Shown here: positions 1 through 4,675 of the stretch, one piece after another
Numbering within the stretch: position 1 is the first letter of the stretch
Layout of the letters: the number at the start of each line of letters is the position of its first letter
Source of the DNA: a virus
Taxonomy: Duplodnaviria; Heunggongvirae; Uroviricota; Caudoviricetes
Strand: one strand, 5' to 3'
IMG/VR virus record: IMGVR_UViG_2663763286_000001
Coordinates: 1-4,675 of that record
DNA length: 4,675 nt
Position numbers and translations under genes: made by a program
The notes under the pieces: generated by a model
Told to the model about the DNA's origin: nothing
Databases searched by the model: none
The model's input: only the letters and a program-made list of their open reading frames with translations

Positions 1-161
1 TAACGTGGGTGGACTGGTATAACAATCGACGATTGCTGGAAAGGCTGGGCCATATTCCTCCGGCAGAAGCAGAAAAAGCTTATTATGCTTCCATCGGAAA
101 TAATGATCTGGCAGCCTGAGTTCACAGATAAAATACTCTCCAGGAAACCCGGGGCGGTTCA
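1..161 (+). mobile_element. IS3-family insertion sequence (IS629/IS1203-like), right end; element continues beyond the window start
   Basis: Transposase reading frame ends at 119, followed by a terminal repeat 122..161 whose reverse complement reads TGAACCGCCCCGGGTTTCCTGGAGAG..., matching from memory the IS629/IS3411-type terminal inverted repeat. The element ends ...GGTTCA (CA-3'), as IS3-family ends do. The left end is outside the window, so the repeat pair cannot be confirmed. Confidence 0.6.
3..119 (+). CDS. Transposase OrfB C-terminal fragment (rve/DDE integrase-core type), 5'-truncated by the window edge
   Basis: Frame 3 translates to TWVDWYNNRRLLERLGHIPPAEAEKAYYASIGNNDLAA*. The YNxRR...LG...PAE pattern is typical of the C-terminus of rve-domain transposases, and a terminal inverted repeat follows directly. 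Confidence 0.55.
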   Translation, partial: TWVDWYNNRRLLERLGHIPPAEAEKAYYASIGNNDLAA

Positions 162-198
162 AATAAATGCCACCGCTATTGCAACTCCTACAGCGGTG
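162..198 (-). terminator. Putative intrinsic terminator downstream of the DUF551 gene
   Basis: Inverted repeat CACCGCT (171..177) / AGCGGTG (192..198) with a 14-nt loop; on the minus-strand RNA it is followed by GCAUUUAUUUG. The loop is long and the U-tract is interrupted, so this is weak. The IS end abuts it at 161. Confidence 0.3.
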
Positions 199-217
199 AA
201 TGCTTCAGGCCAATTCA

Positions 218-721
218 TCACTTCACCTCCTGCGGCGGTTCCGGTAGCGGCATCCAGTGGGTTACCTCTTTGAGATACAGGTCTTCGCCATCACCGTCAT
301 CCCAAGTGGGATTGCCATCATTAAACCAGTCGCCATATACGCCGACCTGAGTGTTGGGGATGTTTGGCGGGTAGTTGTTTTTAAAGTCAGCCGCTAACAC
401 ATAGCATTGTCGCTCTCCCATTTCTGGCATTTGCTCACTACAGCTTATCCAACCATCCGGAGTTACCGGAACTGGCGGCGCGGCATATAGTGGTTTAGGT
501 GATATCTCCGCACGTTTTGCGTATGCTTCAACTGTGTCAGGATTAAACAGGATTATGTTTTCGCCGCATTCCCACGCTATTGGTTTTGCTTCCAGCGATG
601 CCAGAGCAATTCGTGCCAGTTCTTCCGCTTCTTCTGCTGGCAGTACAACGTTGCTACCAGGTCCGTATGTTTCGCGCCACTGCTTGATTGTCAGTAGTCG
701 CTCTTTGGTTATAGTGGTCAT
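218..721 (-). CDS. Phage DUF551-domain protein (167 aa)
   Basis: Intact ORF ending in a double stop (TGATGA). The C-terminal half (PDGWISCSEQMPE...GVYGDWFNDGNPTWDDGDGE...THWMPLPEPP) fits my recollection of DUF551 proteins of lambdoid prophages. Its ATG overlaps the upstream stop as ATGA. Confidence 0.8.
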   Translation of the reverse strand: MTTITKERLLTIKQWRETYGPGSNVVLPAEEAEELARIALASLEAKPIAWECGENIILFNPDTVEAYAKRAEISPKPLYAAPPVPVTPDGWISCSEQMPEMGERQCYVLAADFKNNYPPNIPNTQVGVYGDWFNDGNPTWDDGDGEDLYLKEVTHWMPLPEPPQEVK

Positions 722-927
722 TTGTTAACACTCAAAACTTTATGCCCGGGCGCAAAAGCACGTGTTTTGTCTTTGCTTATTCGCCAGCCATCCTTACGCG
801 CCTCTTTTGCACAACCAGCCCATGACGTACCGATATACTCTCCGAAGTCTGGCACTTGATATACACCTTCCGTACACTGGCGGCAGTCACAATAGAGATG
901 CATGGTGTAACTTGCGGCAATAGCCAT
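718..927 (-). CDS. Small Cys-containing hypothetical protein (69 aa; MAIAASYTMHLYCDCRQCTEG...)
   Basis: ATG at 927 is preceded by AAGGAGAG with a 4-nt spacer. Cys at positions 13, 15, 18 and 39 (CxCxxC...C). Stop overlaps the DUF551 start (ATGA). The 93-aa version in the track is an upstream extension with no ribosome-binding site that would overlap the neighbouring gene. Confidence 0.65.
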   Translation of the reverse strand: MAIAASYTMHLYCDCRQCTEGVYQVPDFGEYIGTSWAGCAKEARKDGWRISKDKTRAFAPGHKVLSVNK

Positions 928-928
928 A

Positions 929-1117
929 TCACTCTCCTTTAGTACGCAAGTGGTTTTTCCAGCGGTTTTGCGCCGCGCTGGGCTTTTTGCAAAAACCACA
1001 ATCCATCATCCCGTAATGTTTCATTAACCCCATCCGTCGGTTGCTGAGTCTCACCCACTGCCAGACGCCAGGAGCGTTTCTACGAACTAACAGAATCTTT
1101 GCTTTACGGTTTTTCAT
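929..1117 (-). CDS. Small basic hypothetical protein with a CxxC motif (62 aa; MKNRKAKILLVRR...)
   Basis: ATG at 1117 is preceded by CAGGAGAG with a 7-nt spacer. Its stop lies 1 nt before the next gene's ATG. The frame stays open upstream to 1276 (115-aa version adding a second CxxC), but that extension has no start codon with usable Shine-Dalgarno spacing. Confidence 0.6.
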   Translation of the reverse strand: MKNRKAKILLVRRNAPGVWQWVRLSNRRMGLMKHYGMMDCGFCKKPSAAQNRWKNHLRTKGE

Positions 1118-1269
1118 CGTTTTGCTCTCCTGCGTCTCTTTGCTGCTCGTCGTGCCGCTGCAATACCGGTATGGCGGCGCTTTGGTGTCGGGATGATGTT
1201 CTTTGCAATTAGCGCAGAAGCCCAAAAACGAGTCGGATACGGTAACAAGCCGAGACATGCCACACGCAT
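1114..1269 (-). CDS. Possible Arg-rich 51-aa ORF (MRVACLGLLPYPTRFW...RRAAKRRRRAKR), alternative frame to the extension of the 929..1117 gene
   Basis: Best ribosome-binding site in the window (AGGAGGTGA, 6-nt spacer, ATG). Start overlaps the upstream stop (TAATG) and stop overlaps the downstream start (ATGA). The low-complexity Arg/Ala-rich C-terminus and rare Arg codons argue against it being a real protein. Confidence 0.3.
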   Translation of the reverse strand: MRVACLGLLPYPTRFWASALIAKNIIPTPKRRHTGIAAARRAAKRRRRAKR

Positions 1270-1718
1270 TACTCACCTCCTTTGATGCGAATGCCAGCGG
1301 CGCGTAATGCGTGTTCTAGGTCAATCAGGTAAAGCCAACTGCCATTTTCTTTAGGTATCATGACTTGTCGCTCATCTGCATTTATCGGGTGTCCATATCG
1401 AAGGTCGTAGAGAGTCGGTAATTGAACTTCCCGCGCTTCCAGTTCAGCAATACGCTTGCACCCATCAGAGATAACTCCCTCGTAATACTCGCGCTGCTCG
1501 TTGAGTTTTGATTTTGTCTCCTCAAGCTCAACGCGCAGCTTCCCTACCGTTAGCGCAATATCCTCGTTCTCCTGGTCGCGGCGGTAGAGGCTACAATAGC
1601 TGCTGAAGCATGCACTTGTTGGATATTCACCAACAATGCCGCGACAAAAATCATCTTCTTCACTTGTCAGCTCCTTTGCGAATCTGTTCCGCCCATTCTT
1701 CAAGGGATTTCTCCGCAT
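1269..1718 (-). CDS. Hypothetical phage protein (about 144-161 aa depending on start; ...WLYLIDLEHALRAAGIRIKGGE)
   Basis: Long minus-strand ORF. The only canonical in-frame start codons with meaningful length lie inside the upstream gene: ATG at 1754, ATG at 1718 (GGTGA only 2 nt upstream), TTG at 1703 (GGAGA with a 6-nt spacer). The reported start is provisional. Possibly Ea22-like by position; no motif recognised. Confidence 0.6.
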   Translation of the reverse strand: MRRNPLKNGRNRFAKELTSEEDDFCRGIVGEYPTSACFSSYCSLYRRDQENEDIALTVGKLRVELEETKSKLNEQREYYEGVISDGCKRIAELEAREVQLPTLYDLRYGHPINADERQVMIPKENGSWLYLIDLEHALRAAGIRIKGGE

Positions 1719-2274
1719 ATTCACCGGACAGGCCATCAATCGGGTACGGTTCATTAGCCAACTCTTCTTTCGCTGACAGAATCATGCGCGTAACGTCGAA
1801 AACTTCACGCAAAGACTTATTGATAAATCCGTGATTGAACGCAGCAGCAAGACGGCTGGCGGTATAGTTAATACCCTCGTTGCGTGCTTCCGCACGAATT
1901 TCAGCCAGAAAAGCATCGGTAGCTGGAGTTTCGCTGTGGTGTAGGGCATCGTTGATAATCATTGCAGCAACTCCGGCCTGCCCTGCATCCGTGACCGACA
2001 CATGATCAAGAGTTACAGCTATTGCGTGTTTCAGCCCGGCGTTCTCCGCCGCCAGCGCTGAAAACTTCTCGTGTGCCAACTTAACAGCCGAATCAGCCTG
2101 CTTAATTGACTCAATCGCTTTCTGCTGGTCTTCGGACAGAGCCGAAATCTTGGCCTCCGCTTCAGCAAATTTACGCACAAGATATTCAGCGTTTGTTTCG
2201 TTAACCTTTAAATCACATGGGATGCATTTACCTTTCAGAAATCCATCCATCTCAATTAGTGTCATTTGTTTCAT
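1660..2274 (-). CDS. Hypothetical mildly acidic, Ala/Glu-rich phage protein (204 aa from [12 protein letters not shown]...)
   Basis: Long ORF whose ATG at 2274 overlaps the upstream stop (ATGA). Composition suggests helical/coiled-coil regions (inference). Alternative starts are GTG at 2292 and ATG at 2265. Confidence 0.7.
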
Positions 2275-2435
2275 TTCTTCCCACTCCGCCACATCGCATT
2301 CAGATATTTGTTATCATTAACAGAGCAGAAACTCTTTCTCTTAAGCAATTCCTCTCTCGATGGCATTGGCTTTACGCGTTGGCGAATAATCATTTCTGCC
2401 GGAAGAATGCCGGGATTGTATGCAAGTCCTCTCAT
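2271..2435 (-). CDS. Small hypothetical protein (54 aa; [34 protein letters not shown]...)
   Basis: ATG at 2435 is preceded by TGAGGAA with a 6-nt spacer, where TGA is the upstream gene's stop. Its own stop overlaps the next ATG (ATGA). The track's 65-aa version from 2468 has no Shine-Dalgarno sequence and overlaps the upstream gene. Confidence 0.5.
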
Positions 2436-2445
2436 GGTAAATTCC

Positions 2446-2742
2446 TCAGTTATTACTGATAGCGCCATAGCGTGAGCGGTAATTACGCAGGCGCGGGTCG
2501 ATATATTCAGGGAATTTGTCTATTGTCGCTTTTCGCAACGGTCTCATTGCTGTTTCGTTTGTTCGGTCCTTCTCCTGTTTTAGCGCGAGTTGTATATCGC
2601 GTCGGTACATCCGTTCTGCTTTTGTTTCTGGTGTCAGAGCAAGAAACGCGTCGAAATTGTTTTTGATATTTCCCAGCACCTCCGCCTTGGAGCTACCGGA
2701 GCAGTTGCGCGGGTCATCCGCACCATACAGAGGCGCTGGCAT
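2446..2742 (-). CDS. Hypothetical phage protein (98 aa; [51 protein letters not shown]...)
   Basis: ORF beginning 23 nt downstream of the DUF669 stop, with a weak AAGG about 9-10 nt upstream. Same strand and tight spacing as its neighbours. No recognisable motif. Confidence 0.65.
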
Positions 2743-2765
2743 AATGGGAGCCTTATTTTCAGTAA

Positions 2766-3353
2766 TCAGAAAGGAGGGTAATCGTTCTGGCTGTAACCAT
2801 AATCATCTGCATGATTATGGCTTACGTTTTTAGAGCGATTGTCTTTATCTTTGAGGCTGGCAACCATGTTGGCGATAGTTTCTGGTTGCTTGCCTTCTGC
2901 CTTTTCTTTAAGGGTTTGACCTGTTTGTGCAATAAACGGGATGCGTATTTCCATCTGGTAGCTGTCTGCGCCAGTCTTTTTGTTTGTGGTTAATACTTTC
3001 TGGAGCACTAACCCGATTTTCTTTCCATGAAATTCAGGTGCAACAAATTTACTGGCGGAAACCATATGTTGCGTTAATTGTCCAATCCCGGCACACCCCA
3101 TCATGGCGTGAACGACATTTGCGCCAAATTTGTTTTCCGTGCCGTCATTTTTCTGAACACAGACGCTAAGATACTGGATTTTACGTCCGTCGTCGGATTC
3201 TCCAGAAAACTCAATAAATTTGGCTCCTTTTTCTGATTGCTTGAGTTCTGCTTCAGTAATGGTAATTATGTAAGCGCCAGTTTCGTTAATAAAACCACCT
3301 TGCCCTGCGGTCAGTGCTGCTTCTTCGTTATAAGTAAAAATTACGTTGCTCAT
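2766..3353 (-). CDS. DUF669-like phage protein (195 aa), the usual partner of Sak4-type recombinases; possible ssDNA-binding role
   Basis: Start overlaps the Sak4 stop (ATGA), with AAGGA upstream. Size, position directly after a Sak4-like ATPase, and N-terminal sequence (MSNVIFTYNEEAALTAGQGGFINETGAYIITITEAEL...) fit my recollection of DUF669. The domain assignment is not verified. Confidence 0.7.
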   Translation of the reverse strand: MSNVIFTYNEEAALTAGQGGFINETGAYIITITEAELKQSEKGAKFIEFSGESDDGRKIQYLSVCVQKNDGTENKFGANVVHAMMGCAGIGQLTQHMVSASKFVAPEFHGKKIGLVLQKVLTTNKKTGADSYQMEIRIPFIAQTGQTLKEKAEGKQPETIANMVASLKDKDNRSKNVSHNHADDYGYSQNDYPPF

Positions 3354-4030
3354 GCGGCGTTTTCCTTAATTTGATGAACATTATTGATGCCGTAGTAATC
3401 ACAAACAGTGGCATCGACGAAAGAGAGATCGTTATCAATCTCATTGGAATCAAACATTCCCATTGGGGATTTAACAGTGTCTGCACCGTTGTTTTTCGTG
3501 GTGAAAAAGAACTGGTCATCGCGGGTAAGAGTGCGAAGAACTATAGTAAACATGCCTTCGACAGTGATTTTCTCGTCCAGCATTTTGCCGATAGTCTTCA
3601 TTTTCACGCGCCCCATAGGGGTTTCTTCGGTGTGCGCAAGAAAATAGACTCTCAGGTCATCAGGCGCATCCTGTGCAGCCTTAATGACCTCCCATGCGTG
3701 GCGGCCTATCTCAGTAAATTTATCAAACGATTTTTCTTCTGAGCGGCGCATAAACTCATTGCTCATCACATACTGGAAGTCATCAACAATAACGATTCTT
3801 TTCCCGTATTCGTGAGCACGCTTAATTACGGCAACTATTACGCCCCATTTGTCAGTGGTAACTACGGTTCCTTTTTTTGCTCTGGCATCCCATGCAAGCC
3901 AGTCTTTTGATTTAAATGGTAGCGGCTTGCCTATTGGTTTTATAAGTATTGCTTCCTCTGGATTGATATTTCTCATGCTGGTTGATTTTCCGGTGCCAGA
4001 CTCACCGAGTATTAATATCGCAGTTCCCAT
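3350..4030 (-). CDS. Sak4-like core-only RecA-family ATPase (AAA_24-type), 226 aa; phage recombination/ssDNA-annealing module
   Basis: Walker A motif GESGTGKST at residues 9-17 and Walker B-like RIVIVDD. The roughly 220-aa size is typical of phage Sak4. GGTGA lies 3 nt upstream of the ATG. It sits where lambda carries bet/exo. Confidence 0.85.
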   Translation of the reverse strand: MGTAILILGESGTGKSTSMRNINPEEAILIKPIGKPLPFKSKDWLAWDARAKKGTVVTTDKWGVIVAVIKRAHEYGKRIVIVDDFQYVMSNEFMRRSEEKSFDKFTEIGRHAWEVIKAAQDAPDDLRVYFLAHTEETPMGRVKMKTIGKMLDEKITVEGMFTIVLRTLTRDDQFFFTTKNNGADTVKSPMGMFDSNEIDNDLSFVDATVCDYYGINNVHQIKENAA

Positions 4031-4038
4031 AATTCACC

Positions 4039-4227
4039 TCAGAATGGTAATTCGGATGGGGAGGAAAGAAATTCGCGCTCATTCATGCGCTCTCTTTGTG
4101 CCAGCCATAAGCAAAGTTGTTTCTTTGATTTATCTCCCGCTTTACGCCAGTAACGAGCCTCAGCAATGTGATACTCTCTTTTTAATCGACTTAACTCTGG
4201 AGTTTTCGCCAGTTCTACCGGGATCAT
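4039..4227 (-). CDS. Hypothetical small protein in the gam position (62 aa from MIPVELAKTPELSRLKREYHIAEARYWRK...; 66 aa if started at 4239)
   Basis: ATG at 4227 overlaps the kil stop (ATGA) and is preceded by GGAGG with a 5-nt spacer. The alternative ATG at 4239 lies inside kil and has no Shine-Dalgarno sequence. The protein is unlike lambda Gam as I recall it. Confidence 0.6.
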   Translation of the reverse strand: MIPVELAKTPELSRLKREYHIAEARYWRKAGDKSKKQLCLWLAQRERMNEREFLSSPSELPF

Positions 4228-4337
4228 TTTGACCTCCATTTTCTGTAGGCTTCGACGGCCTCACGAAACATCTTTTCATCGCCAATAAAAGTGGCGATAG
4301 TGAATTTAGTCTGGATAGCCATAAGTGTTTTATCCAT
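4224..4337 (-). CDS. kil: Kil, host cell-division (FtsZ) inhibitor homolog, 37 aa
   Basis: Translation MDKTLMAIQTKFTIATFIGDEKMFREAVEAYRKWRSK is near-identical over about 33 residues to lambda Kil as I recall it (MDQTLMAIQTKFTIATFIGDEKMFREAVDAYKKW...). AGGAG lies 9 nt upstream. The start overlaps the cIII stop by 8 nt, as in lambda. Confidence 0.85.
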   Translation of the reverse strand: MDKTLMAIQTKFTIATFIGDEKMFREAVEAYRKWRSK

Positions 4338-4470
4338 TTTTGGGAACTCCTGGCTGATTAAGTACGTCGATGAGTCGCTTCCATCCGTCACGTAATTTAC
4401 GGGTGATTCGTTCAAGTAAAGATTCGGAAGGGCAGCCAGCAACAGGCCACCCTGCAATGGCATATTGCAT
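4330..4470 (-). CDS. cIII: CIII, FtsH (HflB) protease inhibitor that stabilises CII, 46 aa
   Basis: Translation MQYAIAGWPVAGCPSESLLERITRKLRDGWKRLIDVLNQPGVPKNG matches lambda CIII residues 1-46 with one substitution (I35V), from memory. The ribosome-binding region TAAATAAGGAGCACACCATG matches the lambda cIII leader. The track's longer ORF is an upstream extension that runs through the terminator hairpins. Confidence 0.9.
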   Translation of the reverse strand: MQYAIAGWPVAGCPSESLLERITRKLRDGWKRLIDVLNQPGVPKNG

Positions 4471-4495
4471 GGTGTGCTCCTTATTTATACATAAC
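4471..4495 (-). promoter_or_regulatory. cIII translation-initiation leader (Shine-Dalgarno AGGAG plus upstream AU-rich tract)
   Basis: Minus-strand sequence UUCGUUAUGUAUAAAUAAGGAGCACACC-AUG is essentially the lambda cIII leader. In lambda this region is known to be subject to RNase III and alternative-structure control; applying that here is by homology. Confidence 0.5.
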
Positions 4496-4517
4496 GAAAA
4501 ACGCCTCGAGTGAAGCG
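4496..4517 (-). terminator. Intrinsic terminator-like hairpin plus U5 just upstream of cIII (tL1-like position)
   Basis: Minus-strand RNA CGCUUC-ACUC-GAGGCG (6-bp stem including one G-U pair, 4-nt loop) followed by UUUUUCG. Confidence 0.5.
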
Positions 4518-4530
4518 TTATTGGTATGCA

Positions 4531-4559
4531 TATAAAAAGGCCCTCACGCACTGGAGGGC
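4531..4559 (-). terminator. Second intrinsic terminator-like hairpin plus U-tract, in tandem with the first
   Basis: Minus-strand RNA GCCCUC-CAGUGCGU-GAGGGC (6-bp GC-rich stem, 8-nt loop) followed by CUUUUUAUAU. Confidence 0.5.
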
Positions 4560-4621
4560 AAAGAAGATTTCCAATAATCAGAACAAGTCGGCTCCTGTTT
4601 AGTTACGAGCGACATTGCTCC

Positions 4622-4649
4622 GTGTATTCACTCGTTGGAATGAATACAC
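4622..4649. repeat. Perfect 9-bp inverted repeat GTGTATTCA-(10 nt)-TGAATACAC
   Basis: Seen directly in the sequence. There is no adjacent T-tract on either strand, so it is not a canonical terminator. It may lie within the 3' end of an upstream minus-strand gene that is cut off by the window edge. Confidence 0.4.
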
Positions 4650-4675
4650 AGTGCTTATTCGTACTAATAAAATAC

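Follow-up and report, generated by a model that had tools for sequence, protein, structure and literature searches.

The window, a 4,675-nucleotide (nt) stretch of DNA comprising positions 1 to 4,675 of IMG/VR virus record IMGVR_UViG_2663763286_000001 (Caudoviricetes), represents the recombination part of the early-left (PL) operon in a lambdoid prophage of the HK620 type. Directly downstream of its annealing gene sak4 and the single-stranded DNA-binding protein (SSB) gene lie two small open reading frames (ORFs), which an initial annotation had tentatively assigned by position to the accessory genes of the P22 abc type. Both are genuine genes and not chance frames, with full-length family matches, hundreds of homologues and low ratios of nonsynonymous to synonymous substitution rates (dN/dS). 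The positional assignment holds for the first, of 98 amino acids (aa), which by its alignment to PF11043 and its 62% identity to the P22 protein is an Abc2 homologue; it fails for the second, of 54 aa, which belongs to the DUF2737 family and is not Abc1. Coding in the part of the window studied here is entirely on the minus strand, and the pair and its junctions are laid out as follows.

2743..2765, minus strand: 23-nt spacer from ssb to abc2 (ttactgaaaataaggctcccatt), with a weak AAGG Shine-Dalgarno sequence.
2446..2742, minus strand: abc2, the 98-aa ORF (ATG at 2742, TGA at 2448-2446), homologue of P22 anti-RecBCD protein 2, minority allele.
2436..2450, minus strand: abc2 stop codon, GAGGA Shine-Dalgarno sequence of the 54-aa gene and 10-nt spacer ggaatttacc (aacTGAGGAatttaccATG).
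2271..2435, minus strand: DUF2737 gene, 54 aa (ATG at 2435, TGA at 2273-2271), equivalent of P22 ORF56, HK620 hkaI, HK97 gp38 and HK446 gp28.
2271..2274, minus strand: ATGA stop/start overlap of the 54-aa gene with the EaE/Oad2-like gene, read from the sequence.

The lengths of the two ORFs and their 23-nt and 10-nt spacers, as first described, were recovered from the sequence, as was the overlap of the first stop codon with the Shine-Dalgarno sequence of the second gene; the GAGGA motif lies 7 nt ahead of the second ATG and shares its GA with the abc2 TGA (cTGAGGAatttaccATG). The 23-nt spacing also separates hkaK from hkaJ in HK620, the 10-nt spacer between abc2 and the 54-aa gene is identical in length in the window, P22 and HK620, and the 4-nt stop/start overlap recurs at HK620 hkaI/hkaH and HK446 gp28/gp27. 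A mechanical ORF list gave a 65-aa version of the second ORF that begins at ATG 2468. This start is not preceded by a Shine-Dalgarno sequence, alignment to the Pfam and PHROG profiles sets in only with residue 12 of that longer version (i.e., at ATG 2435), and the start MRGLAYNP is annotated in both P22 and HK620, so that 54 aa is the correct length.

Alignment of the 98-aa ORF with Pfam family PF11043 is full length (residues 1-98 on positions 1-97 of a 97-position profile; E = 1.2e-35, 122 bits; cut-off 25), and the ORF also matches phrog_656, "abc2 anti-RecBCD" (E = 1.9e-44), and PDB chain 8b1t_A, the P22 Abc2 chain of structures 8B1T/8B1U (E = 2.7e-32). BLASTP against P22 Abc2 gave E = 2e-43 with a single 1-residue gap, and the RefSeq/PGAP name of the gene is "phage anti-RecBCD protein." The statement in the initial annotation that no similarity could be recognized is therefore not borne out for this ORF. 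In P22, Pro68 of Abc2 occupies the active site of the host prolyl isomerase PpiB (Wilkinson et al., PMC9836394), and this residue is conserved in the window protein (..TAMRP68LRKAT.. versus ..TAIRP68FRKAT.. in P22), which also retains the N-terminal and C-terminal conserved stretches. The median dN/dS of abc2 is 0.20. By these measures, the 98-aa ORF is a true homologue of P22 Abc2. The window protein aligns end to end with that of P22 and is likewise encoded in the PL operon after an annealing-protein module lacking an exonuclease; the window abc2, however, follows sak4 and ssb, whereas P22 abc2 follows erf and abc1, and its residues 18-66 represent an old divergent allele that is mainly common to Shiga toxin (Stx) phages and the Salmonella phages ST104 and SE1.

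The 54-aa ORF matches PF10930 (DUF2737) over profile positions 1-52 of 53 (E = 7.7e-29, 99.8 bits; cut-off 25) and phrog_1117 over positions 1-54 of 54 (E = 2.3e-37), shares 72% of its residues with P22 ORF56 and 94% with HK620 hkaI, and is named "DUF2737 family protein" in RefSeq. The gene order in P22 is erf, abc1, abc2, ORF56, eae. On the strength of these alignments, the ORF is a full-length DUF2737 member and corresponds to the gene located after abc2 in P22; it resembles P22 ORF56, HK97 gp38 and HK446 gp28 in its full-length match and in its position after abc2, with no notable difference. An identity as Abc1 was considered and rejected, since the ORF is a homologue of P22 ORF56 and matches only PF10930 and phrog_1117. 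P22 Abc1 found no match in the window by tblastn at E<=10, and no Abc1, Arf or Erf homologue was found in the window. P22 Abc1, a helix-turn-helix (HTH) protein, matches Sigma70_r4_2 and phrog_323 and is encoded before abc2, whereas the 54-aa gene lies after abc2 and has neither an HTH nor similarity to Abc1; the likeness goes no further than small size and proximity to abc2 within a recombination module. Homology to lambda orf60a (DUF1317), orf63 (DUF1382) or orf61 was likewise rejected, as a Pfam scan yields PF10930 alone. These lambda exo-xis genes are similarly small and non-essential and follow directly on the recombination module of the PL operon (PMC3824215), but are not homologous to DUF2737, which is additionally found in virulent phages. 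A DNA mimic comparable to lambda Gam or T7 gp5.9 was rejected on the grounds of a basic composition (isoelectric point 10.4, 12 K+R versus 4 D+E).

The DUF2737 protein of the window has a mass of 6.3 kDa. Across 136 unique coding sequences, the median dN/dS of the gene is 0.22 at substantial synonymous divergence (dS), a value similar to that of abc2, which indicates a protein under purifying selection and not just a conserved DNA linker. A core with the pattern P-x-P-S-R-E-E-L-L-x-R-N-S-F-x-S-V-N-x-N-K-Y-L, present in the window ORF, is retained down to ∼45% identity while the N-terminus varies; among 23 diverse members, R33, S35, F36 and L45 are invariant, and conservation of P23, S38 and N42 is 90% or higher. 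An AlphaFold2 model of the protein is mostly disordered with two short helices (predicted local distance difference test score, pLDDT, 68; predicted template modeling score, pTM, 0.26), consistent with a peptide that folds upon binding a partner. No match was found by phmmer of the 54-aa protein against PDB, by Foldseek of the low-confidence model against PDB, or in NCBIfam and PADLOC searches, and a 23-member DUF2737 profile gave no significant PDB match (best E 0.7). In a weak PDB alignment (E 1-2), the core was paired with the C-terminal end of gp4, the tail accessory protein of P22, probably by chance. In the searchable literature, DUF2737 is mentioned once, in passing, in a phage-genome paper, and PF10930 nowhere; motif and name are also absent from the supplementary material of a preprint on an accessory-gene screen.

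The DUF2737 family is small and narrow, being confined to enterobacterial prophages and Guernseyvirinae. A HMMER scan of 1.84 billion representatives returned 50 clusters at 50% identity, all DUF2737-like except a spurious repeat protein (P0150), and identity reaches 94-100% among many Escherichia coli prophages. A one-genome-per-species scan returned eight loci, two of which were in the Bacteroidota assemblies of Chryseobacterium sp. (L192) and Taishania pollutisoli (L193); because the family is otherwise enterobacterial, contamination or mis-binning is the likely source of these DUF2737-like genes. In-frame deletion fusions of Erf or another upstream gene to DUF2737, via an overlapping MALSVMTEEF frame, were also encountered (proteins P0121, P0122 and P0124; L059 5545-6168) and are likely to be decay products of defective prophages.

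Gene neighborhoods were compared in ∼180 IMG/VR loci obtained with four diverse DUF2737 queries, together with reference phages, the neighboring genes being classified with hidden Markov models built for the analysis. An abc2 gene lies upstream of DUF2737, in Erf or Sak4 modules, in 119 of the 179 loci counted, and about 60 of the 179 are without it. Among the Abc2-less loci, about 38 carry RecT, Gp157 and an Abc1-like HTH gene and then DUF2737. This order is seen in the mEpX1-type loci (L034, L036, L038, L039, L045, and L069), where RecT, Sipho_Gp157 and a 104-aa HTH protein precede DUF2737; the HTH protein belongs to the same PHROG as P22 Abc1, Sipho_Gp157 is termed "Mu Gam-like end protection" by PHROGs, and neither Abc2 nor a recognizable exonuclease was detected in these RecT modules. 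Homologues of lambda Exo, Bet and Gam were found in none of the ∼190 fetched DUF2737 loci, the window itself lying outside that search. An EaE/Oad2-like gene is located directly downstream of DUF2737 in 127/179 loci.

Of the 119 loci with Abc2, about 20 have a DUF5405 gene between abc2 and DUF2737. The inserted gene (DUF5405/phrog_154, 93-107 aa; MKLNIDLGKYVITGTKHDL), which overlaps the DUF2737 start by 4 nt, is found between either abc2 or an abc1-like gene and DUF2737 (seen in L035, L042, L063, L066-L068, and L073), corresponds to HK446 gp29 (L185 4194-4484) and is labeled "replication initiation protein" in some records. Near-identical DUF2737 proteins (at least 94%) are paired with Abc2 alleles of less than 70% identity in 15% of locus pairs, which places mosaic junctions between the two genes. 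In temperate phages, DUF2737 lies at the distal end of the Erf, Sak4 or RecT module in nearly every sampled locus. Homologues outside recombination modules, which the initial annotation had named as counting against a recombination role, do exist for the 54-aa ORF: in the virulent Guernseyvirinae, represented by Kagunavirus fEg-Eco06 and Jerseyvirus EnJE6, DUF2737 is one of a group of small genes flanked by the lysis cassette and the terminase. In fEg-Eco06, the whole genome of which was read, over 30 kb separate it from the genes for the polymerase, the PD-(D/E)XK nuclease and DUF2815, and its neighbors include NinH and a T7 Gp2-like RNA polymerase inhibitor. A recombination or anti-nuclease role of the 54-aa protein is conceivable but has no positive support beyond position.

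The remaining genes of the module, read on the minus strand in the order kil, hkaM, sak4, ssb, abc2, DUF2737 and EaE/Oad2-like gene, are listed below.

4224-4463, minus strand: kil.
4039-4239, minus strand: HkaM-like ORF, 66 aa, just before sak4 (phrog_1723; 97% identity to HK620 HkaM).
3350..4030, minus strand: Sak4 single-strand annealing ATPase (phrog_2872, E = 6.1e-108; 99% identity to HK620 hkaL).
2766..3353, minus strand: SSB of the HK620 HkaK type (SSB-2), partner of Sak4 (phrog_743, E = 8.7e-67; 98% identity to HK620 hkaK), with its TGA stop codon at 2768-2766.
1660..2274, minus strand: EaE/Oad2-like gene, directly downstream of the 54-aa gene (phrog_614, E = 6.3e-93).

The closest matches of the window are Stx1a phages, and of 5426 complete E. 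coli genomes, 1376 gave a megablast match to the DNA of the abc2-DUF2737 pair, and many of these 1376 carry Shiga toxin phages. HK620 contains the same genes in the same order, hkaM-hkaL(sak4)-hkaK(ssb)-hkaJ(abc2)-hkaI, with the same 23-nt and 10-nt spacers, and the DNA is 97-100% identical over two stretches, one covering hkaM, sak4 and ssb and the other taking in the 3′ end of abc2, DUF2737 and the first codons of the gene that follows. It differs in carrying another allele in the center of abc2 and in the gene downstream of hkaI, which diverges past the first ∼36 codons. The Sak4 and SSB proteins of HK620 have been characterized and the function of the SSB demonstrated in a study that did not consider hkaI (Hutinet et al., PMC5928155).

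The product of the downstream EaE/Oad2-like gene (1660-2274) and HK446 gp27 (Oad2) share 47% identity over 146 aa; the first ∼36 residues of the window protein are highly conserved among phages and the remainder is variable. The corresponding HK446 order is gp33, Erf, gp31, Abc2 (gp30), gp29 (DUF5405), gp28 (DUF2737), and gp27. In that phage, gp33 is reported to trigger the P2 OLD abortive-infection nuclease, and gp27 (Oad2), a relative of P22 EaE, to inhibit OLD and to be sufficient alone (preprint 10.64898/2026.07.10.737580). With abc2 upstream and an Oad2-like gene downstream, the 54-aa gene of the window is flanked by a RecBCD hijacker on one side and a relative of an anti-defense gene on the other.

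At the other end of the module, the HkaM-like ORF (4039-4239) occupies the position of gp33 in HK75 and HK446 (phrog_2123), a possible RecBCD manipulator (preprint 10.64898/2026.07.10.737580); BLASTP revealed no similarity between the ORF and gp33, and tblastn and phmmer gave weak matches of ∼35%. Just upstream of kil, two terminator-like hairpins (4500-4559, minus strand) may match the tL2-type terminators annotated there in HK620. A short ORF at 9-119 on the plus strand (MDWYNNRRLLERLGHIPPAEAEKAYYASIGNNDLAA) resembles the C-terminal end of an IS3-family transposase and adjoins a DUF551 gene (218-721, minus strand), which suggests that an insertion sequence interrupts the left arm of the prophage. 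No Chi site was found in the window against 0.1 expected, so that the count is uninformative.

The difference in abc2 between the window and HK620 is restricted to codons ∼15-80 (window 2500-2700, minus strand), where nucleotide identity falls to 50-80% between flanks of 97-100%. In this center, dS is about 2.5 (saturated) and dN/dS is 0.19, values on which positive selection was rejected as the cause of the divergence. The same central allele is common to Stx1a and Stx2a phages and is ∼86% identical in Salmonella phages ST104 and SE1, and the sampled loci contain two main Abc2 alleles as well as hybrids such as that of L035. The pattern of substitutions and matches identifies the center as an old alternative allele and not a fast-evolving patch.

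The explanation that best accommodates these observations, and one that is quite probably correct, is that Abc2 hijacks RecBCD for the benefit of Sak4 and SSB and that DUF2737 is a separate host-directed effector. By homology with P22 Abc2, the window protein would bind RecC of host RecBCD and engage host PpiB via Pro68; RecC binding by the allele present in the window can be inferred on the same basis. RecBCD modified by P22 Abc2 still unwinds and cuts DNA (PMC9836394), is unresponsive to Chi according to earlier work by Murphy cited in the same study, and has been proposed to then serve the phage recombinase (PMC9836394). The Abc2-bound enzyme of the host of this prophage would similarly be blind to Chi and still active as a helicase-nuclease and, because the phage module has no exonuclease of its own, would supply resected DNA to Sak4 and SSB. 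DUF2737 would be translated from the abc2 transcript, right after abc2, and would fold onto a conserved enterobacterial target independently of Abc2. A small host-directed effector of this kind, any activity of which is putative, is proposed with low to moderate confidence; its independence of Abc2 is suggested by the loci without Abc2, the pairings with divergent Abc2 alleles and the occurrence in virulent phages away from recombination genes.

Several points weigh against this explanation. In the window protein, divergence is greatest across residues 18-66, which in P22 Abc2 make up the RecC-contacting helices, so that the target specificity of this allele could differ from that of P22 Abc2. 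HK620 abc2 gave no stimulation of Sak4 in oligonucleotide recombineering (PMC5928155), although this is weak evidence because an oligonucleotide assay needs no end resection. For DUF2737, the position at the far edge of the modules of temperate phages makes a recombination-linked role possible, no PDB, fold, PADLOC or literature match points to a specific target, and the counts of loci with and without Abc2 are indicative only, as the sample is biased toward relatives of the four queries and holds a few duplicate contigs.

Other roles for the 54-aa protein are conceivable. Both small ORFs might act jointly on RecBCD, the 54-aa protein serving as an Abc2 cofactor or a second host-nuclease modulator. 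The tight 10-nt spacing conserved in the window, P22 and HK620 would be in keeping with this, as would the presence of Abc2 just upstream in 119 of 179 DUF2737 loci, the location of DUF2737 at the end of three non-homologous types of annealing module and never with lambda Exo/Bet/Gam, and the requirement of P22 recombination for poorly understood helpers (PMC9836394). Joint action is nevertheless unlikely, given that about 60 loci are without Abc2, that mosaic junctions separate the two genes, that the homologues in virulent phages have no adjacent recombination gene, and that the 54-aa protein is not Abc1 and is too strongly basic to be a DNA mimic like Gam or gp5.9; moreover, lambdoid synteny is largely inherited gene order. 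It is similarly doubtful that DUF2737 is an effector common to exonuclease-less recombination modules and virulent Guernseyvirinae, as a new kind of basic modulator of RecBCD or of another host DNA-end-processing enzyme that does not mimic DNA, or as a suppressor of guard systems that sense RecBCD tampering, forming a functional trio with Abc2 and the Oad2-like gene. An anti-defense factor belonging to a counter-defense hotspot, for example one that silences a guard system sensing RecBCD tampering, can be entertained a little more readily, though it too would be a minority choice. Its location between Abc2 and the EaE/Oad2-like gene, with the ATGA overlap, and that of HK446 gp28 beside the OLD inhibitor gp27, would suit such a factor, and so would its occurrence in temperate and virulent phages alike and its nature as a small peptide that probably folds only when bound and is under purifying selection. 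Oad2, however, is by itself sufficient against OLD (preprint 10.64898/2026.07.10.737580), no screen in the literature searched has reported DUF2737, and an identity of 94-100% among many E. coli prophages is unusually high for an arms-race gene.

A developmental modulator of the exo-xis type, acting on the lysis-lysogeny decision or on induction like lambda orf60a, orf61 and orf63, is very unlikely. DUF2737 does occupy the position of lambda orf60a as the first small gene past the recombination module, and the exo-xis genes of lambda and Stx phages influence lysogenization and induction (PMC3824215, PMC6213356), but it has no homology to orf60a (DUF1317), orf63 or orf61 and is conserved in Guernseyvirinae, strictly virulent phages that never choose between lysis and lysogeny. 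It is scarcely credible that the 54-codon frame is no gene at all and represents either a terminator region or conserved DNA that serves as a junction for mosaic exchange. The high conservation of the DNA from the abc2 3′ end through DUF2737 to the first ∼36 codons of the next gene between otherwise different phages, and the annotation of a tL3 terminator within HK620 hkaI, could be read in this way; the dN/dS of 0.22 at substantial dS, the retention of the protein motif among members of 45-55% identity that no longer resemble one another in DNA, the good Shine-Dalgarno sequence and the lack of a terminator-like hairpin on the minus strand at 2271-2435 all speak for a translated gene.

As a discovery, the gene pair matters little, since it is already known: both genes are annotated in RefSeq, and the HK620 module was described in 2001 and 2018. 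It does show that inference from position in lambdoid operons is half reliable, as it gives abc2 correctly and would mislabel the second gene as abc1-like. A like error was made in the original annotation of HK620, in which hkaK, in fact an SSB gene, received the label abc1 because of its position (PMC5928155). For the phages themselves, the second gene draws attention to DUF2737, which is among the commonest uncharacterized small genes of enterobacterial prophages.

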